From the NCBI GenBank assembly GCA_013203545.1, contig JABMQA010000345.1:1-37013 (forward strand): DNA of 37,013 nt, in the 5' to 3' direction. The translations under genes were made by a program, and so were the position numbers. Of this stretch, positions 7,015 through 25,908 are shown one piece after another; position 1 is the first letter of the stretch; each line of letters begins with the position of its first letter. The notes under the pieces were generated by a model. That model was not told the origin of the DNA. It made no database searches and saw only the letters and a list, made by a program, of their open reading frames with translations. This stretch comes from Bacteroidota bacterium. GTDB lineage: Bacteria > Bacteroidota > Bacteroidia > Bacteroidales > 4484-276.

Positions 7015-7052
7015 TTTTAAAATTTTAGATTATTCAATAGAGAATTGATCAA

Positions 7053-7442: not shown

Positions 7443-7498
7443 AATGTTTAATTTTTAAATGTTTATTAATTTACAAATAATTATAATATCTACCGAAC

Positions 7499-9586: not shown

Positions 9587-9687
9587 GGTTTTATGTTTTT
9601 ATTATCTAAGATAAAGCGTATCTATTTTTCATTTGCTGGTTTCAATTCACCGATACAACTCTCAGGCTAAACATTATATTAGTCGAT

Positions 9688-10224
9688 TCAAAGTTGTCTT
9701 TTTAAAACCAATTGATCAAATTGAATATTTACGGTATCTTTAAGACCGGCCACACCAAAATTAAACTGGGAAATATTCAGTCCAACAAAGCCGTATAAAT
9801 GACAGACGTAAGTTACCGATGTCTTACTGTGTTCAATGGTGGCAACTAAAACTAATTGTTCCTGAATATTATTAGCGTTAACCGTTATAGGAACATTTAA
9901 TTTAAGCACCGGATGGTTCCATGTTATAAAATCGTCATCAGGTATTGTTCCTGAAAAATTGACCCACATCGAATTTTTATCAGATAGAATCAGCGAATCA
10001 AGAAATGCCACCCCTGTTCTAAGCGTTTTAAAATCAATTTTACCAACGAACACTTTGGTTGTATAATTGAGGAAGAAGTTAAGATTGCTGCTTTGAGCAA
10101 CAACTCTTTCCCCCTTAAACTCGCCAGTAATGGCAATATTCCCTTCAACTGTGCGATATGTGGTTTGCGCCCGGGTATAATATCCGAATTCAAAAATCAG
10201 AAATAATATCAAAGTTGCGTTCAT
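9688..10224 (-). CDS. Secreted hypothetical protein (possibly YceI-like beta-barrel)
   Basis: 178 aa with an N-terminal hydrophobic signal ending TRAQ and beta-rich composition. The YceI-like guess rests only on a weak pattern (FVGKIDFKTL...). Confidence 0.5.
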   Translation of the reverse strand: MNATLILFLIFEFGYYTRAQTTYRTVEGNIAITGEFKGERVVAQSSNLNFFLNYTTKVFVGKIDFKTLRTGVAFLDSLILSDKNSMWVNFSGTIPDDDFITWNHPVLKLNVPITVNANNIQEQLVLVATIEHSKTSVTYVCHLYGFVGLNISQFNFGVAGLKDTVNIQFDQLVLKRQL

Positions 10225-10343
10225 GGCATAAGTGGTTTTTAGTTAAACGATTAATGTAATTTAATGCTTCTTTTATATCCAGTTCGTGTGCGATTTCCCA
10301 GTCATTCAAAGTATGATTCGTGGATATTTTTGCATCTCTTTCG

Positions 10344-11219
10344 TTAATATTTGTCACTCAGTATCACCGGAGATTTTCCGTCGGTGATAATAATTTTTGC
10401 ATTTGGCGACTTCACCAGTTCTTTGGTAATATCCAGTGCTTTAAACCGAATTAGTTTATCTGTGAGCGAAGAGTTTAAAATATCCTGTGACTTTTTGATG
10501 GCTTCAGATTCTATCAATAGACGTTCTGATTCTTTCTTTTGTTTTTCAATAACAAACTCGAGCGCTATCCGCTGTTTTGTAACTTCCAATTCGGCTTCTT
10601 TTTTCTGTTTCTCAATTTGAAAATCAAGATTTTTCCTTAGAATCTCCACATCTATTTCGGTTTTCAGTGAAATCTGTTCGGCATTTAATTTTGCCTGGAT
10701 GGTTTGCTTTACGGCTTCCGGTAGGTCAATGTCTTTGATAAGCACTAAGTCTATCGAAAAGCCATACTTGCCAACGGTTTCAGTAAGTTTTTCTTTAATA
10801 GATTGTTCGATTTCGGCCCGTTGGGTTATGAGTTCGGTGGCTTTGTGATTAAGCCCTTCCTGCCGTAAGGCAGTAATCAGATTGTTTATGATAAGAGTGT
10901 TTTGGTAATAGCCATCGAATTTCTGATAAATGCTTTGCACTGAATCCGGGATTAAATGATAAAGCAGGGTTATTTCAGAAGTTACTTCGATACCTTCGAT
11001 GCTATGAAATCCAAGATTATTGGAATATTCGATAACCCGGATATCAAAACGTTTAATTTTTGTGCCAATAATCCCTCGTGCATGTGCGCCGGGCAGTAAT
11101 ATGTCAGGTTGAATTTTTCCATAACGCACTTTCAGTCCTACTTCACCTGGGCGAATGACAGAACAACTACTTATCAGAACAACGACTGCTAACAGATAAA
11201 AAATCTTAAATTTTTTCAT
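10344..11219 (-). CDS. SPFH/band-7 (prohibitin-like) lipoprotein
   Basis: 291 aa with lipobox LISSC followed by SVIRPGEVGLKVRYGKI, a typical SPFH-domain start. A long charged coiled-coil C-terminal half follows. Confidence 0.8.
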   Translation of the reverse strand: MKKFKIFYLLAVVVLISSCSVIRPGEVGLKVRYGKIQPDILLPGAHARGIIGTKIKRFDIRVIEYSNNLGFHSIEGIEVTSEITLLYHLIPDSVQSIYQKFDGYYQNTLIINNLITALRQEGLNHKATELITQRAEIEQSIKEKLTETVGKYGFSIDLVLIKDIDLPEAVKQTIQAKLNAEQISLKTEIDVEILRKNLDFQIEKQKKEAELEVTKQRIALEFVIEKQKKESERLLIESEAIKKSQDILNSSLTDKLIRFKALDITKELVKSPNAKIIITDGKSPVILSDKY

Positions 11220-11231
11220 GATTTCTAATTT

Positions 11232-11510
11232 TTAAAGTTTATAATTTATTCTATGACATATTGGACACCATCTTCCCTGTTTAATATAATCAGGAGTACT
11301 TTCAAAAATGTGTCCGGATTTACATTGCCAGTGCATTTTTGTTTTTACGTTAAAATATTTATCAGACAAGCATTTTCCACCTTTATCCAGAGCAAGTTTA
11401 CACATCACATCCAGGCCTAGGGGCTGGTTGCCCGCACAATGCGGACACCAGCTCTTCCTGACTTTTATGCTAAAAGGAGTTGAAACCCAACTATGCCCCT
11501 TACTACACAC
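11232..11510 (-). CDS. Zinc-ribbon repeat protein, probably a 5'-truncated remnant
   Basis: 92 aa with two repeats of W-x-C-x2-GH-x(13-15)-WCP-x-C (WVCSKGHSW...WCPHC; WQCKSGHIF...WCPIC). The ORF begins at a GTG inside a repeat. A further repeat fragment lies upstream in the same frame, behind a TAA at 11547..11549. Confidence 0.5.
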   Translation of the reverse strand: MCSKGHSWVSTPFSIKVRKSWCPHCAGNQPLGLDVMCKLALDKGGKCLSDKYFNVKTKMHWQCKSGHIFESTPDYIKQGRWCPICHRINYKL

Positions 11511-11620
11511 CCAAAGTAATTTATCTTTACTGTTAATGTATCTCTTTTACAAGCATTTTCCACCTCTTTGCTTTGCGATTATTTGCATTCTGGTTAAAGG
11601 TTCCATAACTTTTTTATTAG

Positions 11621-11971
11621 TTATTCTCCATTCTCCAGGCCTGTTTTTACACGGTATGCTTTTTCAACATCGGAAACGTAAATAATTCCGTCACCGTGAT
11701 TAAGTGTACACCCGTGTTCACAGATTAAACTTGTAATAGTATCAACATCAGCATCTTTTGCCACAATTTCAAGTTTAGCAATTTCACTATCAGTAATCGA
11801 AAATTTTTGTGATACAAAAGCTGTATCGTCCTGAAATTTCCCTGTGCCTTCGGCCATAGAAATAGTCATGTTGTCAAAACCTTCTTCTTTTAAGTGCTGA
11901 ATAATTTTATTCACTTTATTTGGTCGTATAAATGCTTTTATTTCTTTCATGATACTAATTTTAATGGTCAT
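11621..11971 (-). CDS. P-II (GlnB/GlnK-fold) family protein
   Basis: MKEIKAFIRPNKVNKIIQHLKEEGF...GDGIIYVSDVEKAYRVKTGLE is collinear with canonical P-II proteins. The likely true start is Met8 at 11950, 10 nt after the czcB stop, because the longer ORF overlaps czcB by 11 nt. Confidence 0.8.
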   Translation of the reverse strand: MTIKISIMKEIKAFIRPNKVNKIIQHLKEEGFDNMTISMAEGTGKFQDDTAFVSQKFSITDSEIAKLEIVAKDADVDTITSLICEHGCTLNHGDGIIYVSDVEKAYRVKTGLENGE

Positions 11972-13298
11972 GTTCAGTTTCTTCTTTGCCCATATCCGAT
12001 ATTAAATAATATGCTACGTTCATTACAATTTGTGTATTTTCCGGTAATGGGTCAATCAGTTTTATTTCGGTATAACCTTCATCTTTAAGACCAGTAATAA
12101 CCTCTACCATACGGAAAGTCATTTCATGCTTCTCATCATTTAATTCGTTAGTATGATCATCATGGTTATGACCTTCGTCATTATCATTGTCATGATTTTC
12201 AACCTCCTCATGACCTTCATCATCATCATTATCGTGATTTGCTAACTCTTCATGACTTTCATTCCCGTTATCGTGTTCATCATGGTCATGTTCATCCATA
12301 GATTCAGTATCTATTACAAAAATGAATGACTTGGTTCCTTCGGTAACAATAGCATCGTTGGGCAAAGTACGTGTATAGTTTTCATCTGTATGAATATGCC
12401 CGGAAATGTACATTCCTGAAATTAAACCCGTAGTTTTTTCATTTATTTTTGCATGAATATGAACTGCCCTTGAATTAGTCTCAAATTCTTTTCCAATTGC
12501 AAATATTGTTGCCGTTAATTCTTCTTCATGGCGGTTTGAAACAGTAAAATGTATTTTTTGCCCTTCCTTAATCAGATGAACGTCTTTTTCGTAAATCATA
12601 AAATCGGCATGAATTGCGCTGTTGTCGGTAATTCCAATTAATATGTCTTTTGCATCAACGTAAGTTCCAACTTTTATATTTACGTCATTTATGAAACCGT
12701 TAATTGGTGACTTAATACTTATTGTATTTGAAATCTCACCTTCTTTAACTTTGTCAGGTGAAAGGTTCAACAACTGCAATCGTGATTTTAAGCCTTCATA
12801 TTTAGCCTTAATTGTATTGTATTCAGATTTTGTTTGCTGATAATCCCTGCCAGCTCCCACATTATTCTCGAAAAGCTCTTTTTGGCGTGCATACTCTTTT
12901 TCTATAAATTCGAGCCTGCTGGATATTTCAGCAAAGTCTTCCTGTAAAGAGATGTAGTCGGGATGTTCGAGTATTGCAAGCTGTTGACCTTTGGATACTT
13001 TGTCGCCATGAAAAACACTAATTGCTTTTACGTTCCCACCAATAATGGCAGTAACTTCGGCACTGCTTGACGGGGGGACTTCCAGTTGGCCATTTGACTT
13101 TACAACCGTTGTTAAATTACGCATCTGAAAAGTCCCCAATTTTAAATCAAGGGCTTCACGTTGACTGGCATTTAAAACTACCGCCCCTTCAACACCATGC
13201 TCTTCGTGTTCTTCTCCTTCTTGATTATCTTTTTTTTCTGAATTACACGATAACAATGCAGCCACCATGATAAATGCTAAAAATATTTTTGTCTTCAT
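11961..13298 (-). CDS. czcB: RND efflux periplasmic adaptor (membrane fusion protein), CzcB-like, with His/Asp-rich insertion
   Basis: 445 aa with lipobox LLSC. Lipoyl/hairpin-type MFP blocks are present (G.V..I.V..GD.V.KGQ.LA; coiled-coil; INGFINDVNIKVGTYV). It lies directly downstream of the RND pump. An acidic/His-rich insert spans residues ~334-392. Confidence 0.9.
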   Translation of the reverse strand: MKTKIFLAFIMVAALLSCNSEKKDNQEGEEHEEHGVEGAVVLNASQREALDLKLGTFQMRNLTTVVKSNGQLEVPPSSSAEVTAIIGGNVKAISVFHGDKVSKGQQLAILEHPDYISLQEDFAEISSRLEFIEKEYARQKELFENNVGAGRDYQQTKSEYNTIKAKYEGLKSRLQLLNLSPDKVKEGEISNTISIKSPINGFINDVNIKVGTYVDAKDILIGITDNSAIHADFMIYEKDVHLIKEGQKIHFTVSNRHEEELTATIFAIGKEFETNSRAVHIHAKINEKTTGLISGMYISGHIHTDENYTRTLPNDAIVTEGTKSFIFVIDTESMDEHDHDEHDNGNESHEELANHDNDDDEGHEEVENHDNDNDEGHNHDDHTNELNDEKHEMTFRMVEVITGLKDEGYTEIKLIDPLPENTQIVMNVAYYLISDMGKEETEHDH

Positions 13299-13316
13299 TT
13301 TATATAATTTTTTCGA

Positions 13317-16300
13317 TTATTTACCTGTTAAATATTTCAATTGGGCAGATAATTCATAATACTCTGCCTGTTGTTTTAAAAAATCCTGTTTAGTATTGAT
13401 AGCCATTTCCATGTTCTGAATAAACTGAACATAGTCAATACTACCAAGACGATACGCCAGATTAGATGCCTGTATTTGCTCATCGGCTAGTGGCAATGCT
13501 TCCTTTTGATAATAGTCGATGACTTGCTGCAATATAAGGTATCGGCTAATTTGTTGATTATATCCGGCTTTTATTTCCAGTTGTTTTTGTTCGTATCGCC
13601 GATTCGCAATTTGGACATCAATTTTTGAAGCCTTTGTTTTGCCGGATTGGGAAAAGAACGCCAATGGAAAAGAGATACCCGCTTCCCAACCATAAAAACC
13701 AGAATTACCATCAACCGATTGCAATTTATATCCCAAGTTTAATTTGGGAAGGAAATTAGACTTTTCTGTTCTCCAAATAGATTCTGCAACATTGATTCCG
13801 GTTGAGTAATAATTTAACAAAGGGCTTCCACTCAAAGAATCGCTGCCAGGAACAATATCAAAAACCTGCTGTTCTAAGTTCTGAATGTTAACATCAAAGA
13901 TCGTCGGTAATAAAAGGTATTGATTTAGAATTTGTAAAGTTGCCAAATAGTTGCTTTCAGCTTTCTTTATATTTACCTGCAATTCTTTGTGCTTGACGGA
14001 TGCAGATAGATATTCTACTTTAGAAGTAGCCTGTGTTTTATATCTTAGTTCGGCAGCCTTCTGAAAATTAGCGTACAAGGTATCAAGTTGTTTGAAAAGC
14101 TGAAATTGTTGTTTGGCATAGACAGCATTGTACCATGCAAAACTAACATCACGGATCAGTGTAAATTCGGTAAGGTTTTGCCCTGATACAGCTTGTTGAG
14201 TACGGGCATTGGCTAATTTGCTTTTTGCTGAAATTCCAAATACATCAATATTCGTCTGTTCAATTCCAATTTTATTTTGAACCCCGGGGAAGTTATTCCC
14301 TACTTCTTCCTTTCCCGTATAAATTGAAGTGCTTCCAAATTCATAAGCCGTAGCTTTTAGTGCTTCTTGTTTGTCAACCTCCAACCGAGCTGCTTTTATA
14401 GAAGGGTATTTTTCTTTAGCCCTTTCCACCGCCAGTTGTAATGTTAGCGATGAATCCTGAGCCTGAGCGTTTCCAGAAAAGCCAAGGCCAACGATTATAA
14501 AAAGCACGGATAGTACAGCTATGGACGGTTTAGGAATTTTTATTCTTTTTCCTTTCGACTCAACAAACTTATAGAGAATAGGTAACACAATCAAGGTAAG
14601 TAAAGTGGATGTAAGCATGCCCCCAATTACAACAGTTGCTAAAGGCCGTTGAACTTCTGCACCTGCGGAAGCTGATACAGCCATCGGCAAAAAGCCCAAA
14701 ATATCGGTTGATGCGGTTAATAAAATTGGTCGGATACGTCGTATAGAGCCCTTTTTAATGATTTCGTTTATGCGGAGCTTGCCTTCAGCTTTTAGTTCAT
14801 TAAATCCACTAATCAACACCAAGCCATTGAGGACTGCGACACCAAACAAGACAATAAAACCTACCCCGGCAGAAATACTAAAAGGCATATCCCTTAAATA
14901 CAATGAAAATACACCACCTACAGCGGCAAATGGTACTGCTACATAAATCATGAGGGTTTGTTTAAACGATTTAACCGCAAAAAATACCAACATGAAAATT
15001 AATGCCAAAGCGAGTGGAACTACAAGAGACAATCTTTTTGAAGCTCTTTGGAGGTTTTCAAAAGCTCCCCCGTACCGAATATAGTAACCCGTAGGTAGTT
15101 CCAGTTTTTCATCTAAAGTTGTTTGGATTTCCTCCACGAGCGACTTAATATCCCTGCCTTCAACATTAATCCCTACATAGGTGCGCCTGTTCGTATTGTC
15201 ACGGCTAATTTGCATCGGCCCTGGCTGATAACTTATTTCAGCAACTTCTTTTAATGGTATTTGATTACCATCAGGAAGATTAACAAACAAGTTTCGGATA
15301 TCGTCAATACTTGTTCGATGTTCTTCGTCCAATCTCACCACAAGGTCGAACATGCGCTCACCTTCGTATATACTTCCGGCAACACCACCACTAAAAGCAG
15401 ATTCAACGATGGTATTTAGCTCTTTAATATTCAAGTTGTATCGACCAAGCTTATTTCTGTCGTAATTAACTGTAATCTGAGGCAATCCTCTTGTGGCTTC
15501 AGCTTTTACGGCTGCAATACCATCAATTTCAGAAATTAGCCCGGCAATTTCTTCTGCTTTATCGGCCAGCATTTCCAAATCATCGCCATATAGTTTAACG
15601 GCAACATCTTGACGAATACCCGTCAACAATTCATTAAAGCGCATTTCAACAGGCTGGGTAAACTCAAAATTGATTCCGGGCAATACACTGACTTTTTCCC
15701 TAACCTTATCAATTAATTCCTTTTTAGATTCGGCTTTTGTCCACTGGTCTTGCGGAGTTAATATCACAAAAATATCAGCAATGTCGATTGGCATAGGATC
15801 CATGGGTAAATCTGCCACCCCAATCCTGCTTTGAATACTTTCTATTTCATCGGGGAAATTCTCTATAACAATTTGCTCCAACCGTGTAGAAGCTTTAGTG
15901 ACTTCGGTTAATGAAGTACCGGGCTTTAAAAACGCCTGAAAAGCAAAATCGCCTTCATCAAGTTTCGGAATAAACTCAGCACCCATCCGTGTAAATAGAA
16001 AACCTCCTGAGATTAATAATGCCAAAGCAATAATAATTACAATAAGGCTTCTTTTAAGTGCCCATTCAATTACAGGACTATATATTTTTTCAAGTTTCCC
16101 AATGATTTTATCTCCCCATGATTTTTTATCTGTTTTAGGCGGCTGAAGAAATAAGGCTGCCATCATTGGTATGTATGTAAGACACAACACTACCACGCCC
16201 AATACGGCAAAACCGAATGTCATAGCCATAGGGATGAACATTTTACCTTCAACACCTTGTAAAGCTAATACGGGTATAAAAACAATCAAAATGATTAGCT

Positions 16301-17657
16301 GACCGAAGAATGCTGAGTTCATCATCTTACTGGCTGAATTAAAGGCTATTTCATTACGTTTTGGCTGGTCAAGCTTGGTGCCTATAAGGTTCTTTCGATG
16401 AAGGTAAAAAATCATACTTTCAACAATAATTACCGCACCATCCACCAATATTCCAAAATCCAACGCTCCTAAACTCATCAGGTTTGCCCAAACCCCAAAC
16501 AACTTCATCATGATAAATGCAAAGAGCAATGCAAGTGGAATTGTTGATGCCACAATTAAACCGCCTCTTAGATTTCCCAGAAATATTACAAGGATAAAAA
16601 TTACTATTAAAGCACCCAACGAAAGGTTTTCGGCAACTGTGGAAGTTGTACTTTTAATGAGTTTACTGCGGTCGAGAAAAGGTTTTATTACAACGCCTTC
16701 GGGCAATGATTTTTGGATTAATGTCATCCGTTCCTTTACTGCCCTAATTACATCGTTGGAGTTTTCCCCTTTCAGCATCATTACAATACCACCAACAGCC
16801 TCACCTTTCCCGTTTTTTGTAAAAGCACCATAACGGACAAAACTACCGTATTTAACTTCTGCCACATCCCTTATAAAAACAGGTTGTCCATCGATGTTTG
16901 CAACTAAAGTATTTTTAATATCATCAATCGACCTCATTAATCCTTCGCCCCTGATAAAATTGGCTTGAAAGTTTTTTTCGATATATGCACCACCGGTATT
17001 CTGATTATTGTCCTTAAGGGTTTCAAATACATCGGATATTGTCAATCCCATGCTCCGAAGTTTATCCGGGTTAATTGCAACTTCGTATTGCTTTCCCCTA
17101 CCACCAAAAGAGTTTACTTCAACAACACCAGGAAGCATTGCCATTTGCCTTTTTACAATCCATTCCTGCATGGTTCGTAATGCCATGTCATCATAAATTG
17201 TATCGTAGCCGGGTTGCACTTCAAGCGTGTATTGATATATTTCGCCTAGTCCTGTACTGATTGGGGCCATGAACGGTTCTCCAAATCCTTCTGGGATTTT
17301 TTCTTTTACCTCTGCTAAGGCTTCACTTACTAATTGCCGGGGTAAATAAGTTCCCGCACTTTCTTTAAAAACAATGGTTACAACAGAAAGCCCGAACCTT
17401 GAGACACTTCGTATTTCAGTAACGTCAGGAAGGTTTGCAACTGCCAATTCAACCTGATACGTTACAAACTGTTCAATGTCTTCTGTACCTAAGTTGGGTG
17501 CTGTTGTAATTACCAAAACCTGATTATTTGTGATATCTGGCATGGCATCAAGCGGCACTTTGGTCATGGAATATATTCCGCCAATAATCAAGCCTATTGT
17601 CATAAGCCCAATTAGTGCCTTGTTCTTTATTGAAAAAGATATTATTTTGTTTATCAT
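13317..17657 (-). CDS. czcA: Heavy-metal RND pump (CzcA-like, divalent-cation type) fused in frame to a TolC/CzcC-like outer membrane factor
   Basis: 1446 aa. Residues 1-~1034 are a full 12-TM RND pump, with TM4 LGALDFGILVDGAVIIVES (the DFG..DGA..VE signature of Zn/Co/Cd HME pumps) and RIRPILLTAS. Residues ~1067-1446 are a TolC-like OMF (two repeats, coiled-coil-rich). The joint is a signal-peptide-like segment, KGKRIKIPKPSIAVLSVLFIIVGLGFSGNAQA/QD. Confidence 0.92.
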   Translation of the reverse strand: MINKIISFSIKNKALIGLMTIGLIIGGIYSMTKVPLDAMPDITNNQVLVITTAPNLGTEDIEQFVTYQVELAVANLPDVTEIRSVSRFGLSVVTIVFKESAGTYLPRQLVSEALAEVKEKIPEGFGEPFMAPISTGLGEIYQYTLEVQPGYDTIYDDMALRTMQEWIVKRQMAMLPGVVEVNSFGGRGKQYEVAINPDKLRSMGLTISDVFETLKDNNQNTGGAYIEKNFQANFIRGEGLMRSIDDIKNTLVANIDGQPVFIRDVAEVKYGSFVRYGAFTKNGKGEAVGGIVMMLKGENSNDVIRAVKERMTLIQKSLPEGVVIKPFLDRSKLIKSTTSTVAENLSLGALIVIFILVIFLGNLRGGLIVASTIPLALLFAFIMMKLFGVWANLMSLGALDFGILVDGAVIIVESMIFYLHRKNLIGTKLDQPKRNEIAFNSASKMMNSAFFGQLIILIVFIPVLALQGVEGKMFIPMAMTFGFAVLGVVVLCLTYIPMMAALFLQPPKTDKKSWGDKIIGKLEKIYSPVIEWALKRSLIVIIIALALLISGGFLFTRMGAEFIPKLDEGDFAFQAFLKPGTSLTEVTKASTRLEQIVIENFPDEIESIQSRIGVADLPMDPMPIDIADIFVILTPQDQWTKAESKKELIDKVREKVSVLPGINFEFTQPVEMRFNELLTGIRQDVAVKLYGDDLEMLADKAEEIAGLISEIDGIAAVKAEATRGLPQITVNYDRNKLGRYNLNIKELNTIVESAFSGGVAGSIYEGERMFDLVVRLDEEHRTSIDDIRNLFVNLPDGNQIPLKEVAEISYQPGPMQISRDNTNRRTYVGINVEGRDIKSLVEEIQTTLDEKLELPTGYYIRYGGAFENLQRASKRLSLVVPLALALIFMLVFFAVKSFKQTLMIYVAVPFAAVGGVFSLYLRDMPFSISAGVGFIVLFGVAVLNGLVLISGFNELKAEGKLRINEIIKKGSIRRIRPILLTASTDILGFLPMAVSASAGAEVQRPLATVVIGGMLTSTLLTLIVLPILYKFVESKGKRIKIPKPSIAVLSVLFIIVGLGFSGNAQAQDSSLTLQLAVERAKEKYPSIKAARLEVDKQEALKATAYEFGSTSIYTGKEEVGNNFPGVQNKIGIEQTNIDVFGISAKSKLANARTQQAVSGQNLTEFTLIRDVSFAWYNAVYAKQQFQLFKQLDTLYANFQKAAELRYKTQATSKVEYLSASVKHKELQVNIKKAESNYLATLQILNQYLLLPTIFDVNIQNLEQQVFDIVPGSDSLSGSPLLNYYSTGINVAESIWRTEKSNFLPKLNLGYKLQSVDGNSGFYGWEAGISFPLAFFSQSGKTKASKIDVQIANRRYEQKQLEIKAGYNQQISRYLILQQVIDYYQKEALPLADEQIQASNLAYRLGSIDYVQFIQNMEMAINTKQDFLKQQAEYYELSAQLKYLTGK

Positions 17658-17663
17658 TTGATA

Positions 17664-17727
17664 TTATTTTTTCGAGCTATCAACTTGATTTTATTTTTTC
17701 GAGCTATCAATTTGATTTTATTTTTTT
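17664..17727. repeat. 27-nt tandem direct repeat (2 full copies plus a 10-nt partial) between the YHS-like gene stop and the czcA start
   Basis: 17664..17690 reads ttattttttcgagctatcaacttgatt and 17691..17717 reads ttattttttcgagctatcaatttgatt (1 mismatch). A partial third copy, ttattttttt, occupies 17718..17727. Confidence 0.85.
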
Positions 17728-18191
17728 GGTTTAGTCGCATAATATTTTTTGAAGTTTAGATTATTCTTGAAATAAATAACTCCCGGTTTGCCTCGCTCTT
17801 TCAATCCTATCAAAGCATCTGACTTGCAAATTGTATCACCGGAAAAAGCATCTGCTGCATAAGCAACTTCCCGAAAGTGTTTATTTAAGTGCTCTTGGCA
17901 TTTTGAGCTACACATATAGAAGGCTTTGTTCTCTTTGACGACTTTTGAGCTTTCGTGATATTGCAAACTATTATCATTCATACAAACCAGCTCACCAGGT
18001 ATTTCCTTGCCGTACAAAAAATATTTTCTATAGGCATATTTAGTATCACACCAATAGGTGAAGAAAACCAGAGTTATAATCGTACCTATGAGAAGCACGC
18101 TAAACCCGACAATCAATTGCTTTCGGAATTTTTTGTCCTCAAGAAATTGCTTTTCTTGTAATTGCTTTTTAGTTAATCTTTTAGATGACAT
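17718..18191 (-). CDS. Membrane-anchored YHS/TRASH-like domain protein
   Basis: 157 aa with one TM (LIVGFSVLLIGTIITLVFFTYW), followed by LVCMNDNSL...KAFYMCSSKCQEHLNKHF. That matches the YHS pattern (C-x-M ... Y-x-C-S-x2-C-x3-F). Confidence 0.65.
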   Translation of the reverse strand: MSSKRLTKKQLQEKQFLEDKKFRKQLIVGFSVLLIGTIITLVFFTYWCDTKYAYRKYFLYGKEIPGELVCMNDNSLQYHESSKVVKENKAFYMCSSKCQEHLNKHFREVAYAADAFSGDTICKSDALIGLKERGKPGVIYFKNNLNFKKYYATKPKK

Positions 18192-18237
18192 TATTCAGTA
18201 TTGTTACTTTAGAATTAATTATCCTTAAAATAAATAG

Positions 18238-18258
18238 GATGTATTAATTAATATTATC
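18238..18258. promoter_or_regulatory. Candidate Fur-family operator (AT-rich palindrome) upstream of the YHS-like/czc operon
   Basis: The site reads gatgTATTAATTAATAttatc and contains a perfect 12-bp palindrome at 18242..18253. The reverse complement starts GATAAT, a Fur-box hexamer. It lies ~50 nt upstream of the ATG at 18191 and ~450 nt downstream of the Fur-family gene. Confidence 0.3.
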
Positions 18259-18315
18259 ACAAAGACGCGAGAATCTATCTTGCATCTATTGTAAAAAAAA
18301 GAAAGTATAACTGAA

Positions 18316-18621
18316 TTAAATTTTGGGGGGTCGCCAAAATGAAATAGCACATTCTATTTCATCCTGAACCAAAGAAGACATTGATAAATTAAAACTTACT
18401 AAATTAATCTGAAAAATGAAGTGCTTTGTAATTTGTGATAGAGTTTGACAACAATCACAAAAACAAAATGGGGAGCATAAATCAACATCGTGTGAGTGAC
18501 TATGACTTTGTTCAAATACTTCTAAAGTAACAGAATTTGTATCAGCAGCAAAAACATCAGCACAAGGCATGGCTGTTAGAACCATGACATAAACTGATAA
18601 TATGACTGCAATGAATTTCAT
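18316..18621 (-). CDS. Small Cys-rich membrane-anchored protein, DUF6660-like
   Basis: 101 aa. The N-terminal TM ends in MPCAD, followed by HSHSHDVDLCSPFCFCDCC and a C-terminal FWRPPKI. This pattern matches my memory of the Bacteroidota DUF6660 family. Confidence 0.7.
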   Translation of the reverse strand: MKFIAVILSVYVMVLTAMPCADVFAADTNSVTLEVFEQSHSHSHDVDLCSPFCFCDCCQTLSQITKHFIFQINLVSFNLSMSSLVQDEIECAISFWRPPKI

Positions 18622-18633
18622 TCTTATGAGAAC

Positions 18634-18649
18634 TAATTATTAATTATTA
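18634..18649. promoter_or_regulatory. Second candidate Fur-family operator, next to a TATTTTTG -7 box (18656..18663, minus strand)
   Basis: taattattaattatta is a 14/16 palindrome and shares the 9-mer TATTAATTA with the 18242..18253 site. It lies between a TAnnTTTG-type box and the DUF6660-like ATG at 18621. Confidence 0.25.
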
Positions 18650-18693
18650 CAACGGCAAAAATACAACAAAGTTCATGCAACCGGATTGCAAAC

Positions 18694-19107
18694 TTAGAGC
18701 TTGCAATTTGAACACACGCCTTTCACTACCATATTCACACTTTCGAGGGAGAAGCTATTGGGAAGATTAATTGTTGGCACTGGAATATCGTTTAAACAAT
18801 ACGTTTGGTTGCACTTTGTGCAGAGAAAATGAACATGTAAATCTTCGGGGTGACAATTGCATTTTTCCTGGCATAAGGCATATTTAACGGCCCCGGTTCC
18901 ATCGTCAATACGATGGATTAGCTGATTTTCTTCAAAGGTTCTTAATGTCCTGTAAAGCGTAACCTTATCAGCTCTGTCAAATTTTAATTCCAAATCATGC
19001 AGGTTGATAGCTGTATTTTGTTCAGTCAGAACCTGTAAAACCAACTGTCTCATGGCAGTTGGCTTAATATTTTTGGACTGTAGCTTATTGTCAATATCCT
19101 TTTTCAT
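18694..19107 (-). CDS. Fur-family metalloregulator (Zur-like by context)
   Basis: 137 aa with a winged-helix N-terminus (KPTAMRQLVLQVL...VTLYRTLRTFEENQLIHRI). The C-terminal metal sites are HVHF, CTKC and CSNC. Confidence 0.85.
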   Translation of the reverse strand: MKKDIDNKLQSKNIKPTAMRQLVLQVLTEQNTAINLHDLELKFDRADKVTLYRTLRTFEENQLIHRIDDGTGAVKYALCQEKCNCHPEDLHVHFLCTKCNQTYCLNDIPVPTINLPNSFSLESVNMVVKGVCSNCKL

Positions 19108-19120
19108 GATTATTACAAAG

Positions 19121-19381
19121 TTAACAACATTTTATGGCTTGTTGAACCGGTGGGCATTTTACTGTCCCATAAGAACAATAGACGCAACAATCACCCTGCT
19201 TAGGTTTTAAGATAACAAGGCAATTTTCACATTCATAGAAAAACTGGCATGAATCCTCAGGCATGTTTTCTTCTTTCCGAATTCCGCAATTTGGACAGGT
19301 TAGAACTGATTTTAATTTAAAAAGAAAGGCCTGCCCTAATTGGCAGGCCGATCCCGTAAATAAATTAATGCTGATGCCCAT
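19121..19381 (-). CDS. GDCCVxC-domain small metal-binding protein (start uncertain)
   Basis: The C-terminal 60 aa read LTCPNCGIRKEENMPEDSCQFFYECENCLVILKPKQGDCCVYCSYGTVKCPPVQ. The track ORF (to 19483) overlaps the upstream HMA gene by 119 nt. The last in-frame ATG, at 19381, still overlaps by 17 nt and places a terminator-like hairpin inside the CDS. Confidence 0.65.
   Translation of the reverse strand: MGISINLFTGSACQLGQAFLFKLKSVLTCPNCGIRKEENMPEDSCQFFYECENCLVILKPKQGDCCVYCSYGTVKCPPVQQAIKCC
19312..19349 (-). terminator. Intrinsic-terminator-like hairpin after the HMA gene
   Basis: Perfect 8-bp GC-rich stem ggcctgcc/ggcaggcc (19328..19335 and 19342..19349) with a 6-nt loop. On the minus strand it is followed by TTTCTTTTT. 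It sits 16 nt downstream of the stop at 19365..19367. Confidence 0.4.
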
Positions 19382-19754
19382 CGTGGCCTTGTTCTTCTTT
19401 CTTATCATCACTTCTGTCGTACTGGCAGCAACCTGGCAGCGCATCATAAACTTTGTCTTCGGCTTGCGCTTTTTCGGTGTCATGGCCTACTTTGGCTATG
19501 GCCTTGTGAACGTCTAATAATTCCACGTCATCGGGATTGTATTTTACCGTGATCATTGTCGTTTCCTGGTCCCAGTCGGCAGATTCAACCCCATCAACCG
19601 ATTTTGCAGCTTTTTCGATGCGCTTTTCGCACATGCCGCAGTTGCCATACACTTTGAATTCTTCTGTTTTTGTAGTTTCCTTTTGTGCCTGAAGGTTACC
19701 AAAACCTGCCAGCACAATTGTGATTGCTAAAATTGACTTCATTAACTTTTTCAT
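19365..19754 (-). CDS. Periplasmic heavy-metal-associated (HMA) domain protein with His-rich tail
   Basis: 129 aa with signal peptide AGFGNLQAQ and an HMA motif, VYGNCGMCEKRIEKAAKSVDGV. It also carries LPGCCQYD and a C-terminal EEQGHDGHQH. Confidence 0.85.
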   Translation of the reverse strand: MKKLMKSILAITIVLAGFGNLQAQKETTKTEEFKVYGNCGMCEKRIEKAAKSVDGVESADWDQETTMITVKYNPDDVELLDVHKAIAKVGHDTEKAQAEDKVYDALPGCCQYDRSDDKKEEQGHDGHQH

Positions 19755-19812
19755 AGTTTCTCCGTTTTAAATTGTTTAAATTGTATTTGTTATTTTAAGA
19801 ATTAGTATTCGA

Positions 19813-20328
19813 TTACTCTTTTATTCCTTCAAACTGATAATAAACATCCGGTTCATTCACAGGGATGATACTGTAAGAAAACGTATGATGATCCAATTCA
19901 AATCCACCGAAATGTTCCTCACCGGTTTGATGTTGTTCCACCATGTGATGCATCCAACTCCAATCGTCGCCTTCACCCATCATATGATGTCCTTCGTCAA
20001 GTTGATGGCCATATTCTTCATAAAAGCGCTCTTCGGTAAAGCAAACCATGATACTATCTTCATTTTCGTAAAGATTCAGCATGAAGGTAGTATCAAGTAT
20101 ATCACTCATCATGTTTAAATACACCGTGTTTTCATCTGCCCTGGTAATTTCTATTATAGCATCCTGGCTTTTGTCAGGATCATTAGATGGTGTGATGCTT
20201 CCTTTGTATGTCCCGGTTACATCTGTTGTTAAGTTGGTTGGGTTTTCGGTTTTTTCCTTCTCGCATGCTACAAATAGAAATGGAATAAGGAATACTACTG
20301 TTAATAAAATTAATGCTTGTTTTTTCAT
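19813..20328 (-). CDS. Lipoprotein of unknown family, His/Met/Glu-rich C-terminal half (paralog of 5839..6432)
   Basis: 171 aa with lipobox FVAC. Shared blocks are GTYKG, DSIMVCFT, FYEEYGH, HFGGF and FEGIK. A metal-ligand-rich stretch reads GHQLDEGHHMMGEGDDWSWMHHMVEQHQTGEEH. Confidence 0.7.
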   Translation of the reverse strand: MKKQALILLTVVFLIPFLFVACEKEKTENPTNLTTDVTGTYKGSITPSNDPDKSQDAIIEITRADENTVYLNMMSDILDTTFMLNLYENEDSIMVCFTEERFYEEYGHQLDEGHHMMGEGDDWSWMHHMVEQHQTGEEHFGGFELDHHTFSYSIIPVNEPDVYYQFEGIKE

Positions 20329-20373
20329 TGTTACAAATTTTTAAAATGATTATTACTTATTGTTTTTTAATAT

Positions 20374-22806
20374 TTATTGAGTTCTTAATCGTAATGCATT
20401 CGAAATTACGGATACTGAGCTAAAGCTCATGGCAGCAGCTGCAATAATAGGACTGAGAAGGATTCCGAAAAACGGGAACAGAATCCCTGCCGCCAAAGGC
20501 ACTCCCAGGGCGTTGTAAACAAAGGCGAAGAATAGGTTTTGCTTAATGTTCCTCATCACTTTTCGGCTTAAATCCCTGGCCCGGACAATCCCATTCAGAT
20601 CGCCTTTCACCAGGGTGATTTCAGCGCTTTGCATGGCAATATCGGTACCAGTACCCATGGCAATCCCCACATTGGCTTGTTCGAGTGCCGGGGCATCATT
20701 TATTCCATCGCCTGCCATGGCAACTACGTGGCCTTGTTCCTGTAGTTCTTTCACCTTTTTATATTTGTCGTCTGGGAGGCAATCGGCCATAAAGCCATCC
20801 AGCCCCAGCTCATTGGCAACCACTTTGGCCGTTAATTGATTGTCGCCAGTTAGCATATGTACTTTCACACCCATTTTTTGCAGAGTTTTAATGGCATCGG
20901 ACGAGGTCTTCTTTATTTTGTCGGAAACACTTACAATACCCTCTATTTTATTTTTGATGATTAAAAACATGACCGTCTGACCTTTCAATTGCCATTCTTG
21001 AGTAAGGTTCTTCTGATCATCGGACAGGGAAGCCTGAAAATCGTTAATTAACCGGTGGTTTCCCAAACCGATTTTTCCACCTTCATAAACTGCCTGTACC
21101 CCTTTGCCGGTTACCGATTCAAATTTATCAAGCTTAAGAAGCTTCTGTTTATTGGCTTTTGCACCGGCCACGATGGCATCAGCCAGCGGATGTTCACTGT
21201 TTGCATCGACAGAAGCCGCCAGTTGCAGAATTTCCAGGTCACTTAGTCTCCCAAATGATTTGAATCCATTCAGGCTTGGTTTTCCTTCGGTGATGGTGCC
21301 GGTTTTATCAATAATGAGGATATCCACTTTATTCATTTCCTCGATGGCACGGGCATCTTTCACCAGTACGCCTGATTGGGCGCCCCGTGCTGTACCCACC
21401 ATAATCGACATGGGAGTCGCCAGTCCCAGGGCACAGGGGCAGGCAATAATTAATACGGCAACAGCATTAACAAAAGCATAAACATAAGCCGGTTCCGGTC
21501 CCCAGATCGCCCAAACGGCAAACGTAATAACCGCAACAGAAATAACAATCTGGACAAAATACTTTGCTACGGTATCGGCCAATTTTTGGATGGGGGCACG
21601 CGAACGGCTTGCCTTGTTTACCATTTCAATGATTTGCGCCAAAAGCGTATCACTGCCCACTTTTTCAGCCTTCATCTCAAACACTGTTTTGCCGTTAATT
21701 GTTCCCCCGGTCACCTTATCATTTTTTGCCTTCTCCACTGGAATAGGTTCACCGGAGATCATGCTTTCGTCAATTACTGCTTCCCCTTTAAAAATGATCC
21801 CGTCAACAGGAATTTTTTCCCCGGGCTTTACTTTTAGCAAGTCACCAACTTTTACTTCTTCCAATGGGATTTCAACTTCCTCGCCATTTCGGATGAGCCT
21901 GGCAATTGGGGGAACCAGCCCCAGCAAGGCTTTAATTGCTGAATTGGTTTTGCTGTGTGCGCGGAGTTCCAAAACCTGGCCGAGCAGCACCAGGGTTAAT
22001 ATCACAGCAGCCGCTTCAAAATAAATATGGACATTGCCACTTCCATCCTGAAACTGGGGTGGAAATATACCCGGCAATAAAAGGGCGACCACACTAAAAA
22101 TATAGGCAGCACCGACGCCAATGGATATTAATGTCCACATGTTTGGCGTCCAACGCACGATTGAGCTCCATCCCCTTCTGAAAAAATCCCAGCTTGAATA
22201 AAACAAAACCGGTGTAGCCAAAACAAACTCAATCCAATTCCATACTTTTTCCGGGGCAATTGATTCAGGATTTAAAAAGGGAATAAATTCTGACATCGCA
22301 ATAATCAAGACCGGCACTGCCAAAATAAGTGCAATCCAGAACTTTTTTGACATCTGTTTATAGGCTTTTTCTTCATCGCTCGTTTCTTCTCCTTTTTCAG
22401 GTACAAGGGTCATCCCGCATTTTGGACAGTCGCCCGGATGGTCTTGCCTGATTTCGGGGTGCATAGGGCAGGTATAAATAACTTTTGCCGAAGGTTTTAC
22501 ACTCTCTTCTTTCTTCAGGTCCATACCGCAAACAGGGCAGTCGCCTGGCTTATCGTAGGTTTTATCGCCCTCACAGTGCATGGGGCAGTAATATTCGCCT
22601 TTCACAGGATGACCTTCATGTTTTCGATGTGATGGTTCGTGCGTGCCAGTTTTATTACCACCGTGGTGATGATGATGCTTCTTCTTCTGTTGGGCCACTG
22701 TTATCAGGTGCATTTTGCATACCGGGCAGTCACCGGGTTTATCATAAGTTTTGTTGCCCTCACATTCCATGGGACAGTAATATTGTTCCTGTTTTTTATT
22801 GTCCAT
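20374..22806 (-). CDS. copA: Cu(I)-translocating P1B-1 ATPase (CopA-type) with three N-terminal HMBD-type Cys4 repeats
   Basis: 810 aa. Core motifs are SGEP, ACPCALGLATP, DKTGTIT, GDGINDAP, YNALGVPLAAG and MSFSSVSVISNALRL (Cu-type TM7/TM8 signatures). The N-terminus has 3x C-P-M-(H/E)...PGDCP-x-C-(G/K)-M plus an HHHHH tract. Confidence 0.95.
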   Translation of the reverse strand: MDNKKQEQYYCPMECEGNKTYDKPGDCPVCKMHLITVAQQKKKHHHHHGGNKTGTHEPSHRKHEGHPVKGEYYCPMHCEGDKTYDKPGDCPVCGMDLKKEESVKPSAKVIYTCPMHPEIRQDHPGDCPKCGMTLVPEKGEETSDEEKAYKQMSKKFWIALILAVPVLIIAMSEFIPFLNPESIAPEKVWNWIEFVLATPVLFYSSWDFFRRGWSSIVRWTPNMWTLISIGVGAAYIFSVVALLLPGIFPPQFQDGSGNVHIYFEAAAVILTLVLLGQVLELRAHSKTNSAIKALLGLVPPIARLIRNGEEVEIPLEEVKVGDLLKVKPGEKIPVDGIIFKGEAVIDESMISGEPIPVEKAKNDKVTGGTINGKTVFEMKAEKVGSDTLLAQIIEMVNKASRSRAPIQKLADTVAKYFVQIVISVAVITFAVWAIWGPEPAYVYAFVNAVAVLIIACPCALGLATPMSIMVGTARGAQSGVLVKDARAIEEMNKVDILIIDKTGTITEGKPSLNGFKSFGRLSDLEILQLAASVDANSEHPLADAIVAGAKANKQKLLKLDKFESVTGKGVQAVYEGGKIGLGNHRLINDFQASLSDDQKNLTQEWQLKGQTVMFLIIKNKIEGIVSVSDKIKKTSSDAIKTLQKMGVKVHMLTGDNQLTAKVVANELGLDGFMADCLPDDKYKKVKELQEQGHVVAMAGDGINDAPALEQANVGIAMGTGTDIAMQSAEITLVKGDLNGIVRARDLSRKVMRNIKQNLFFAFVYNALGVPLAAGILFPFFGILLSPIIAAAAMSFSSVSVISNALRLRTQ

Positions 22807-22862
22807 TATTAATATATTAGATGTGTTTCGGAAAATAAAGCGAATGTTTTAAGAGGCTTTTA

Positions 22863-23081
22863 TTAAATACTTCCCTTTTTTTCCTCATATTCTTCTTTAT
22901 CTATTTCACCCCTTGCATATCGTTCCTTTAAAATATCAAGTGCCGATTTGCTTGTTGTTTGGTTAGCGCTGTCTTTCTGATTTACAAATCTTACTATTAT
23001 CCATATTATTGTCGCGAGAACGATAAGGCCTAAAATCCAGCCCCATCCCATTCCCCAACCCATTCCATTAAAATCGTGCAT
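22863..23081 (-). CDS. SHOCT-domain small membrane protein
   Basis: 72 aa with a Gly/Trp-rich N-terminus and one TM (ILGLIVLATIIWIIV). The C-terminal ALDILKERYARGEIDKEEYEEKK matches the SHOCT pattern. Confidence 0.75.
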   Translation of the reverse strand: MHDFNGMGWGMGWGWILGLIVLATIIWIIVRFVNQKDSANQTTSKSALDILKERYARGEIDKEEYEEKKGSI

Positions 23082-23135
23082 GATTAATCTCCTTCTTTAT
23101 TGTTTATTAATTAGTTTTAAATCATATGCCCCATA

Positions 23136-23522: not shown

Positions 23523-23533
23523 GATTGTTAATT

Positions 23534-24037: not shown

Positions 24038-24107
24038 AATAATAAATTTTTAAATTGTTTTACTTAAATTGTTTTTTCATGGTGAATCACTTTAATGTTT
24101 TATGGTA

Positions 24108-24115
24108 CAAAGGTA
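24108..24115 (-). promoter_or_regulatory. Candidate -7 promoter box (TACCTTTG) upstream of the Met-rich gene, abutting an imperfect palindrome at 24116..24130
   Basis: The minus strand reads CTGGTAAGCTTCCAG-TACCTTTG. TACCTTTG fits TAnnTTTG, ~70 nt upstream of the ATG at 24037. The plus strand also shows GGTAC-AAA-GGTAC direct repeats. Confidence 0.3.
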
Positions 24116-24177
24116 CTGGAAGCTTACCAGGCAGATGTTACACAATTCATTGAATAGTTTTCATGATTCTCAGGTAT

Positions 24178-25901: not shown

Positions 25902-25908
25902 TAGAAAT

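Follow-up and report, generated by a model that had tools for sequence, protein, structure and literature searches.

Does a single gene that encodes an RND pump and, behind it, an outer-membrane factor (OMF) really exist as such, and does its product work as one polypeptide or as two? The gene in question lies on the minus strand of a window of 37,013 nt (the whole stretch of DNA that was analysed), at 13317..17657, and forms one unbroken frame of 1446 codons with an ATG start. Its 1446-aa product consists of a pump (aa 1-1032), a linker of 34 aa (aa 1033-1066) and an OMF (aa 1067-1446), with the following parts:

14562..17657, minus strand: RND pump core of the CusA/CzcA heavy-metal efflux family, aa 1-1032, 12 transmembrane (TM) segments
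14523..14561, minus strand: linker n-region, ESKGKRIKIPKPS, aa 1033-1045, basic and predicted to be cytoplasmic
14475..14522, minus strand: linker h-region, IAVLSVLFIIVGLGFS, aa 1046-1061, the 13th hydrophobic segment, predicted to span the membrane in N-in/C-out orientation
14460..14474, minus strand: linker c-region, GNAQA, aa 1062-1066, with a predicted signal peptidase I site between A1066 and Q1067 (between nt 14460 and 14459)
13320..14459, minus strand: mature OMF with TolC/CusC fold, aa 1067-1446, 380 aa, 43.1 kDa; stop codon at 13317..13319

Pfam ACR_tran spans aa 5-1032 of the fused ORF (E 2e-272) and NCBIfam TIGR00914 (CusA/CzcA) spans aa 1-1039 with 1137 bits (cutoff 701), while the hydropathy plot gives the 12 RND segments and a 13th at aa 1046-1064. 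In the PDB, the pump part matches ZneA (4k0e; E 3.7e-187, query aa 1-1038 against residues 1-1021 of the 1045-residue chain) and CusA (E 4e-169). Its TM4 motif, DFGILVDGAVIIVES (aa 406-420), is acidic and of the DFG...DGA...VE type, which points to proton-driven export of divalent cations as the likely function.

The OMF part is matched by Pfam OEP in two stretches, reaching aa 1445 (E 4e-30), and a profile search of the PDB with it returned OprJ, OprM, SilC, CusC and TolC (E 1.5e-16 to 5e-10 for these five). The AlphaFold2 model of the OMF (pLDDT 92.2, pTM 0.86) is structured from aa 1069 on, and its top Foldseek match is CusC (3pik; TM-score 0.77, E 2.8e-16). A lipoprotein Cys is absent from the mature OMF (aa 1067-1446). 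The original prediction, that one 1446-aa ORF holds a complete 12-TM RND pump and then a complete OMF, is borne out by Pfam, TIGR00914 and hydropathy in agreement.

Gain or loss of one base where stop and start overlap would suffice to make such a fusion, and a missed stop, a frameshift or a decaying pseudogene would therefore explain the gene as an artefact. Against this, at least 25 genome assemblies of independent origin have the same in-frame junction intact, among them the isolates Labilibaculum, Marinifilum, Balneicella, Seramator, Gaoshiqia and Plebeiibacterium; the junction also recurs in more than 100 protein clusters drawn from five data sources. Sufficient sequence is available for 32 related genome loci, all of which have an unbroken frame of about 1450 codons, and both domains are strongly conserved across related fused loci (RND 88-96% identical, OMF 73-83%), which speaks against a pseudogene. 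Sequencing error at the joint, which the original prediction had asked to exclude, is ruled out by these junctions, and by comparison of the assemblies the artefact reading is effectively refuted. The best 120 database matches (at least 80% identity) are all about 1446 aa long and stem from many assemblies made independently of each other, in line with the earlier remark on long (~1400 aa) CzcA annotations in Bacteroidota. Fusions occur in Marinilabiliales, Bacteroidales (including the gut species Phocaeicola plebeius) and Flavobacteriales. Distant fused forms, with the OMF part just 23-34% identical, were found in Brumimicrobium, Arenibacter and Phocaeicola plebeius, the last in a 90% cluster of 1147 members.

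The neighbourhood of the fusion is made up of these genes:

11621..11971, minus strand: P-II family protein, 116 aa (Pfam P-II, E 5e-16), last gene of the conserved operon
11961..13298, minus strand: periplasmic adaptor, a CzcB-type membrane fusion protein of 445 aa (HlyD_D23, E 9e-30), third pump subunit
17718..18191, minus strand: ORF of 157 aa without Pfam match, upstream of the fusion
18316..18621, minus strand: DUF6660 protein, Cys/His-rich (Pfam), upstream of the fusion
18694..19107, minus strand: FUR-family regulator (Pfam), upstream of the fusion

In every related locus the adaptor, which also exceeds the TIGR01730 cutoff (138.5 bits), is encoded immediately behind the fusion, and in most of them the P-II gene, which here shares 11 nt with the end of czcB, comes next. 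The FUR gene together with DUF6660 and/or the 157-aa ORF stands upstream of the fusion in about 25 loci. The order of A-C fusion, then B, then a P-II-like gene had been described correctly from the sequence; its description as atypical is contradicted, for this phylum, by split relatives and by another RND system of the window, which is unfused; both have the order A-C-B:

32472..37013, minus strand: second RND system, unfused, order A-C-B, used as internal comparator
35513..beyond 37013, minus strand: RND2 (Pfam ACR_tran), ending in VPVLYSIREERKLKKLQS before its stop codon
34275..35516, minus strand: OMF2, 413 aa (Pfam OEP), beginning with MKKYIILIITVLICSYGSRA followed by QT
32472..34262, minus strand: MFP2 (Pfam HlyD_D23, HMBD and DUF3347)

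The start of OMF2 overlaps the stop of RND2 as ATGA. Split czcA-OMF-czcB operons of Bacteroidota (e.g. loci L038-L041 and the second system) share the gene order and the flanking DUF6660, which lies upstream of the split version too, and fused and split operons are orthologous (RND 73%, OMF 48% and CzcB 44-48% identical). The OMF signal peptides of the split operons also carry an A-Q cleavage motif. They differ in having two ORFs with a 4-nt or 11-nt overlap and an OMF with its own Met, and their pump stops about 10-15 aa past TM12. For example, in the split orthologues P0125 and P0126 (47-48% identical; order DUF6660-czcA-OMF-czcB) the czcA stop overlaps the OMF start by 11 nt or 4 nt, and the signal peptides at their N-termini align with the linker of the fused protein.

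In a noisy neighbour-joining tree of OMF sequences that are 25-50% identical, where a few proteins scored as stand-alone (e.g. P0146) may have mis-called starts, the fused and split labels require 30 Fitch changes against a shuffled mean of 35. They are thus nearly as scattered as random, which fits two functionally equivalent gene structures. From the sequences, adjacent czcA and czcC genes with overlapping stop and start probably merged in frame many separate times.

The joint itself (aa 1035-1066, 32 aa, nt 14460..14555) reads KGKRIKIPKPSIAVLSVLFIIVGLGFSGNAQA followed by QDSS. Its sequence and coordinates had been quoted exactly, and the basic n-region, hydrophobic core and A-x-A motif (AQA) ascribed to it are present. 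The n-region ESKGKRIKIPKPS prolongs the cytoplasmic tail seen in unfused pumps (ending in VESKKFKNSRNEK and a stop codon in the split relative L038). The 13th segment peaks at 2.13 on the Kyte-Doolittle (KD) scale (aa 1046-1064). By its position in the alignment, the fused linker is the homologue of the signal peptide with which stand-alone orthologues begin.

In order to compare, 48 distant fused linkers were set against 65 stand-alone signal peptides (63 of them scored for -1/+1). The mean KD of the hydrophobic core is 2.94 in fused linkers and 2.65 in stand-alone signal peptides, and the n-region charge is +3.3 and +1.6, respectively. A small residue [A/G/S] at -1 followed by Gln was found in 40 of 48 fused linkers and 50 of 63 signal peptides, against a background of 18.7% of random 14-aa windows. 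By this crude rule 8 of the 48 linkers lack a clear pair; the Phocaeicola form reads ASASA followed by Val, with no Gln. Fused linkers and stand-alone signal peptides are similar in the length of their uncharged stretch, with a small excess in the linkers (median 17 vs 16 aa, p = 0.006).

The close family, represented by 72 unique junctions, shows a characteristic pattern of conservation. Pairwise identity is 0.91 in TM12, 0.34 in the h-region and 0.75 in the first OMF helices. The n-region has a net charge of at least +1 in the 72 variants (mean +2.8), and the h-region is hydrophobic in 72 of 72 (mean KD 1.76-2.66). All 72 have Ala at -1 as well as Gln at +1, and the -3 residue is always A, V, L, T, I, S, G or M, i.e. 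small or aliphatic. The comparison of orthologues proposed earlier yielded both fused and split forms, with the -1 Ala invariant among the 72 close variants. In this alignment, the hypervariable core next to an invariant Ala-Gln pair at -1/+1 is a pattern classic for signal peptides that are cleaved, not for packed structural helices. Gln at +1 (the "Q-rule") marks signal peptidase I substrates in Bacteroidetes/Bacteroidota (PMC5837995; PMC10653852). Like such Sec/SPI signal peptides, the linker has a basic n-region, about 17 aa of hydrophobic core plus c-region, small -3/-1 residues and +1 Gln; unlike them, it lies at residues 1033-1066 instead of the N-terminus, and after cleavage it would stay covalently on the pump and not be degraded.

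The OMF could also be made with an N-terminal signal peptide of its own if ribosomes restart within the linker, using the GTG of V1051 or some other non-ATG codon, with the read-through fusion minor or non-functional. Split relatives do use overlapping stop/start coupling, the linker contains one GTG, and cryptic starts are hard to exclude from sequence because Bacteroidota initiate translation without Shine-Dalgarno sequences. However, the frame is unbroken and, as had been noted, no Met or stop codon precedes the joint; ATG and TTG are absent from the linker, and the sole alternative start codon, the GTG at V1051, sits in the middle of the hydrophobic core and would give a signal peptide without n-region. 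Met is missing from 48 of the 72 family linkers and varies in position in the other 24. Moreover, the pump has no stop codon, so every ribosome on czcA reads into the OMF anyway. We regard independent translation as very unlikely.

Another explanation is that the fusion stays uncleaved, as a polypeptide of about 160 kDa with the 13th segment as permanent signal-anchor, which either ties both membranes together or holds the channel at the inner one. The segment is hydrophobic enough for a TM helix (KD 2.13), AlphaFold2 models it as a helix, and its uncharged stretch exceeds that of stand-alone signal peptides by about 1 aa. In the assembled pump (TolC and AcrB dimensions), the OMF N-terminus lies more than 100 Å from the inner membrane, a gap which requires at least 35-50 extended residues; these dimensions are those of E. 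coli structures that have been solved, rather than of a modelled fused complex. In fused forms only 3-18 aa lie between +1 and the OMF's first conserved helix (2-25 aa in split forms), and in the window's protein 2 residues precede the structured part. In the canonical assembly such a spacer falls far short of the OMF equatorial domain, and none of the fused lineages has acquired a long one. Conservation would also be expected of a structural helix, whereas the h-region is the least conserved part next to an invariant Ala-Gln pair, and free interconversion of fused and split genes would be surprising if the products were radically different. The uncleaved tether, one of two mechanisms originally offered, is thus improbable given the short spacing, while release by signal peptidase is strongly favoured by the linker homology, the invariant Ala-Gln and the variable core.

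We infer with good confidence that the fused gene encodes a polyprotein precursor, which signal peptidase I would cut between A1066 and Q1067 into two efflux-pump subunits. In this process, the CzcA-type pump would insert into the inner membrane during translation, with TM12 ending in the cytoplasm. The basic ESKGKRIKIPKPS would stay inside, aa 1046-1061 would enter the Sec translocon N-in/C-out like a signal peptide, and the 380-aa channel domain would be threaded into the periplasm. Cleavage behind A-Q-A would leave the spent signal peptide on the pump as a C-terminal 13th helix (117 kDa). The released 43-kDa channel would begin with Gln, probably cyclised to pyroglutamate, with the N-terminal peptide pyroGlu-DSSLTLQLAVER (or QDSSLTLQLAVER). 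The freed channel may then take the ordinary outer-membrane route, trimerise and dock onto the pump via CzcB.

Like CzcCBA, CusCBA and ZneCBA of Proteobacteria (HME-RND, TC 2.A.6.1), the system has an RND pump, a CusC/TolC-fold OMF and a CzcB-type adaptor. It differs in joining pump and OMF in one ORF through the OMF's signal peptide, in the order A-C-B instead of C-B-A, in its short OMF (380 aa mature) and in an operon that includes the P-II gene and DUF6660; unlike CusC and OprM, the fused OMF has no lipoprotein Cys. Our literature search found no paper describing the pump-channel fusion, and we know of no experimental precedent in Bacteroidota for internal signal peptide cleavage after a 12-TM protein. 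A parallel is FbcH of Bradyrhizobium japonicum, a cytochrome b-c1 precursor reportedly split at an internal signal peptide. Its ORF, too, encodes first a polytopic inner-membrane protein with a cytoplasmic C-terminus and then, behind it, a partner subunit with its signal peptide; in other organisms the two subunits have separate genes. However, both FbcH products remain in the inner membrane in one complex, whereas here the second would reach another membrane, and FbcH cleavage was reportedly demonstrated by experiment, whereas that of the fusion is predicted from sequence comparison.

The original prediction saw in the fusion a way to enforce 1:1 stoichiometry, which is plausible; the likely benefit of the fusion would be a strictly equimolar, initiation-independent synthesis of two trimer-forming partners.

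The reading frame at 13317..17657 on the minus strand is a single ATG-started frame of 1446 codons. Pfam places AcrB/ACR_tran on aa 5-1032 (E 2e-272) and PF02321 (OEP) on two C-terminal stretches, which correspond to two tandem repeats (E 4e-30; 105.5 bits, cutoff 22). In the hydropathy scan, the 12 expected RND segments are followed by a 13th at aa 1046-1064. The joint was quoted exactly in the original prediction: nt 14460..14555 encode aa 1035-1066, KGKRIKIPKPSIAVLSVLFIIVGLGFSGNAQA, and QDSS follows. The outer-membrane factor (OMF) thus lacks a gene of its own. It follows the pump in frame, and its signal peptide, instead of standing at the N-terminus of the precursor, begins at residue 1033, past 12 transmembrane (TM) segments. 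The calculated masses are 160.3 kDa for the precursor, 117.3 kDa for the pump including the linker and 43.1 kDa for the OMF.

The OMF could also be made independently by internal re-initiation within this frame. The only codon in the linker that might serve is a GTG (V1051), which falls midway along the hydrophobic core, and ATG and TTG are absent; on this absence, together with a survey of the family linkers (72 junctions), an internal start codon was rejected, and we regard re-initiation as very improbable.

The fused form is not peculiar to this contig. The best 120 matches to the fusion protein (80-90% identity), drawn from NCBI, JGI, ENA, Logan and Tara data and including isolates, e.g. 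Ancylomarina subtilis, Labilibaculum and Marinifilum, are all about 1446 aa long. A one-genome-per-species scan found 32 loci with 73-85% identity over junction and OMF, among them isolates of Gaoshiqia, Marinifilum, Balneicella, Labilibaculum, Seramator and Plebeiibacterium, and wherever a related locus has enough sequence, the frame runs on unbroken for about 1450 codons. On the 120 best matches and these intact frames, an artefact that joins two genes was rejected and its probability is negligible.

In order to compare fused and split forms, aa 1040-1446 were searched against 1.84 billion cluster representatives, which gave 2299 matches at E up to 1e-3, and the best 150 were classified.

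Classification of the best 150 matches to junction and OMF
Fused: 48 of the best 150; full length 1439-1463 aa, or N-truncated fragments retaining pump TM12
Stand-alone OMF: 65 of the best 150; about 390-420 aa, with Met and signal peptide
N-truncated: 30 of the best 150
Ambiguous: 8 of the best 150

Named members of the distant fused clusters are Brumimicrobium oceani, Arenibacter palladensis and Phocaeicola plebeius, the last in a 90%-identity cluster with 1147 members. They are annotated as “CusA/CzcA family” and nothing more, so that operons with genes labelled only in this way seem to have no outer-membrane factor, which is an annotation gap.

Around the nearest stand-alone OMFs (P0125 and P0126, 47-48% identical), the loci read DUF6660, czcA (1026-1044 aa), OMF, czcB, and the pump stop overlaps the OMF start by 11 or 4 nt. 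For example, in the split locus L038 the pump ends in MPILYMWVESKKFKNSRNEK before its stop and the OMF starts with MKNNINLAFILILLTMMSTYLRA, with the predicted cut before QNIV; compared with these ends, the fused sequence LPILYKFVESKGKRIKIPKPSIAVLSVLFIIVGLGFSGNAQA, with its predicted cut before QDSS, is simply a pump tail and an OMF signal peptide in one frame. The window itself holds an internal control for the fused gene, a second RND system (32472..37013, minus strand) that is unfused, with its pump continuing past the window end. Its pump ends in VPVLYSIREERKLKKLQS and a stop that overlaps, in ATGA, the start of a 413-aa OMF (MKKYIILIITVLICSYGSRA, predicted cut before QT), and its 596-aa adaptor carries an HMBD heavy-metal-binding domain and DUF3347. 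Pump, OMF and adaptor stand in A-C-B order in this system as in the split relatives, so the gene order of the fusion operon, initially described as atypical, is normal in this phylum.

An apparently stand-alone OMF, P0121 (417 aa, 59% identical to the OMF part), starts with MRSLLIYLSEGSLTGRR, which looks like the pump C-terminal tail (LPILYKFVESKGKR) now opening a gene of its own; a fused gene may have been split very recently here, or the start may be mis-called. When 108 OMF bodies are placed on a neighbour-joining tree, which is noisy and includes a few doubtful “stand-alone” calls (e.g. P0146), the fused/split state needs 30 changes, near random labelling (shuffled labels: mean 35, minimum 29), and this reflects only many events or a noisy tree, not a number of fusions. 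Qualitatively, fused and split gene structures seem to interconvert easily, as expected if the mature products are identical.

The pump half is a full-length HME-RND match. TIGR00914 (CusA/CzcA) scores 1136.7 bits on aa 1-1039 against a cutoff of 701.45, while the multidrug RND models of NCBIfam all stay under their cutoffs for the fusion protein. ZneA (4k0e) aligns end to end (E 3.7e-187; query 1-1038 with chain 1-1021 of 1045), and so does CusA (E 4e-169). With the 12 hydropathy segments, these alignments give the pump 12 TM segments and two large periplasmic loops, and by the sidedness of the termini in the solved structures the C-terminus would be cytoplasmic. TM4 contains DFGILVDGAVIIVES at aa 406-420, which fits DFG-x3-DGA-x3-VEN, reportedly the proton-relay motif of divalent-cation HME pumps (Nies 2003); the final residue is Ser where the motif has Asn. 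Many metal-resistance genes crowd the window, which provides a context for putative metal-cation export and resistance, and the fusion operon is predicted to be a CzcCBA/ZneCBA-type heavy-metal pump by function.

For the channel half, a simple sequence search of the OMF part alone against the PDB gave no match at E up to 1. A profile built from the window OMF and 54 stand-alone relatives matched OprJ, OprM, SilC, CusC and TolC (E 1.5e-16 to 5e-10 for these five). The AlphaFold2 model of aa 1035-1446 (pLDDT 92.2, pTM 0.86) has strands at 75-84, 92-103, 271-281 and 284-295 and helices of ~70 residues. As modelled, the layout is that of a canonical duplicated OMF (helices, two strands, ~70-residue helices), with 4 beta-strands per protomer. 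The top Foldseek match is CusC (3pik, a copper/silver OMF; TM 0.77, E 2.8e-16), followed by SilC, TolC, OprN and OprM, with E below 1e-13 for SilC, TolC and OprM. The CusC/OprM/NodT subclass has an N-terminal lipoprotein Cys, whereas the fusion's OMF has no Cys at or near +1 (AQA/QDSS), and a lipobox is missing from all 72 family linkers. Lipoprotein processing by signal peptidase II was rejected for this reason, and the lack of a Cys after the cut site makes the OMF resemble the non-lipidated TolC type.

In the 72 distinct junctions of the close family, the predicted cut, which follows the A-x-A site pointed out in the original prediction, has Ala at -1 and Gln at +1 without exception (72 of 72 each), and the residues at -3 are limited to A, V, L, T, I, S, G and M. 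The n-region carries a charge of +1 or more and the h-region is always hydrophobic (mean Kyte-Doolittle hydropathy 1.76-2.66). In pairwise identity, the loop and TM12 (0.91) and the first OMF helices (0.75) stand above the n-region (0.47) and the h-region (0.34). A hypervariable core beside an invariant cleavage motif is the pattern that selection for signal peptidase I processing would leave, and not that of a helix packed into the transporter. The fused linkers of the distant set were also set beside stand-alone signal peptides; the background rate of an [A/G/S]Q pair is 18.7% of random 14-aa windows in the same proteins.

Fused linkers and stand-alone signal peptides in the distant set
Hydrophobic core, mean Kyte-Doolittle hydropathy: fused 2.94; stand-alone 2.65
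n-region net charge: fused +3.3; stand-alone +1.6
A/G/S at -1 followed by Gln: fused 40/48; stand-alone 50/63
Uncharged stretch, median: fused 17 aa; stand-alone 16 aa

The invariant Gln agrees with the published Q-rule of Bacteroidetes, by which most signal peptidase I substrates begin, once cut, with a Gln that cyclises to pyroglutamate (PMC5837995; PMC10653852). The supplements of the Q-rule paper (PMC5837995) contain no RND or CzcA entry.

Topology and spacing bear on whether the chain is cut. By homology with solved RND pumps, the chain after TM12 would be cytoplasmic. Since the basic n-region fits the positive-inside rule, the h-region must cross N-in/C-out, and by established topology rules the A-Q-A site would then face the periplasm, the side on which signal peptidase I acts. 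The OMF model is ordered from aa 1069, two residues past the predicted cut, and between +1 and the first conserved helix the fused forms have 3-18 aa and the split forms 2-25 aa. The periplasmic helices of TolC are about 100 Å long and the AcrB headpiece measures about 70 Å; by these dimensions, the inner membrane and the OMF N-terminus would be well over 100 Å apart in the assembled pump. To tether both membranes, an uncleaved chain would need at least 35-50 extended residues, and a spacer of this size is present in no fused lineage, which leaves such a tether improbable.

Given the observed architecture, homology, conservation pattern and spacing, we infer cleavage, sorting and benefit as follows: most probably, the fusion is a polyprotein precursor that is split between A1066 and Q1067 into pump and OMF. 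The 160.3-kDa precursor would be inserted in a Sec-dependent manner and then cut; the 117.3-kDa pump would retain the signal peptide as a 13th helix, and the 43.1-kDa OMF, with an N-terminal Gln (probably pyroglutamate), would travel to the outer membrane and assemble with CzcB and the pump. The predicted neo-N-terminal peptide after the cut is pyroGlu-DSSLTLQLAVER, and the tryptic peptide spanning an uncut junction would contain GNAQAQDSSLTLQLAVER. The benefit may be equimolar synthesis independent of re-initiation. The nearest mechanistic precedent known to us is FbcH of Bradyrhizobium, reportedly a cytochrome b-c1 precursor split at an internal signal peptide. The fusion shares with the FbcH type a polytopic first part with a cytoplasmic end, a signal peptide inside the chain and separate genes for the two parts in relatives, but both FbcH products reportedly reside in one membrane.

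Downstream, the fusion is followed by genes for a CzcB-type adaptor (11961..13298) and for a P-II protein (11621..11971). The conserved operon, found in about 25 loci of the close family, reads FUR, DUF6660 and/or a 157-aa ORF, czcA::czcC, czcB, P-II, and across these loci the pump is 88-96%, the OMF 73-83% and CzcB 65-88% identical; the two halves of one gene thus differ in evolutionary rate at the same loci. The 157-aa Cys-rich ORF (17718..18191, minus strand), directly upstream of the fusion, has no Pfam match and is kept before the fusion in many related loci at 47-58% identity. Between them, upstream of the fusion ATG (17657), 17671..17716 (minus strand) carries ATCAA(A/G)TTGATAGCTCGAA twice in tandem at a spacing of 27 bp, each copy holding the palindrome ATCAANTTGAT; the chance expectation of this repeat in the window is none. 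Checked as a candidate conserved operator, the repeat is absent from all 41 related loci, and it is perhaps an operator peculiar to this strain or the scar of a duplication.

The region 4240..32269 is a dense metal-resistance island, nearly all on the minus strand, which also contains three DUF302 proteins, a FUR-family regulator and two AraC regulators.

Selected genes of the island
4240..5148: CDF transporter
7499..9586: P1B-type ATPase
19365..19754: HMA-domain protein
20374..22806: second P1B-type ATPase
24789..25901: YHS-domain pyridine-nucleotide oxidoreductase
26165..27556: NDH2-like enzyme
27581..27922 (minus strand): second P-II
30548..32269: multicopper oxidase with type IX secretion C-terminal domain

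One P-II gene ends the czc operon and is kept in most related loci, and the other stands elsewhere in the island; Sant'Anna et al. 2009 reportedly linked a P-II subgroup to heavy-metal efflux genes. At the left end of the window (91..4096, minus strand), four consecutive ORFs (241, 391, 404 and 285 aa) have no Pfam match. In loci L001-L032 of related genomes, the fused operon proteins are 76-96% identical across families and orders, with hosts such as Paludibacter, Proteiniphilum, Seramator, Balneicella, Labilibaculum and Draconibacterium, and the operon also occurs in bins labelled Flavobacteriales, Chitinophagaceae, Ignavibacteria and even Patescibacteria. This distribution points to recent horizontal spread of the island, as judged from sequence identity, and some of the contigs are probably mis-binned.

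Tripartite efflux pumps consist of three separately made subunits that meet across two membranes. Here, inner- and outer-membrane subunits are translated as a single chain in a widespread natural variant, which also occurs in one human-gut Phocaeicola species. Full-text searches of a partial library found no paper describing an RND-OMF fusion, which is not proof of novelty; it is unmentioned in the available part of the 2021 Chem Rev review of tripartite pumps and in an Elizabethkingia genome paper. The architecture is common in databases, yet unremarked and unstudied.

Bacteroidota do not use Shine-Dalgarno sequences, and one may speculate that gene fusion can replace translational coupling in such a phylum. 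It is also conceivable, at a low probability, that the fusion is more than two genes written otherwise, through delayed or absent cleavage or through a working 13th helix. With delayed or absent cleavage, a fraction would stay uncleaved or be cut only once the OMF engages the outer membrane, and the nascent channel would be passed on at its own pump trimer in a trans-periplasm assembly line. With a working 13th helix, the retained signal peptide might modulate the pump, as the small protein AcrZ does AcrB. Either version, if true, would be a new principle for assembling trans-envelope machines.

If the cleavage predicted between A1066 and Q1067 is confirmed, the fusion would be one of the rare polyproteins of bacteria that signal peptidase I processes, the first known to us with two products in different membranes, and a used signal peptide would be left permanently on the transporter. 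The family offers a natural system in which to study stoichiometric control and assembly of efflux pumps.
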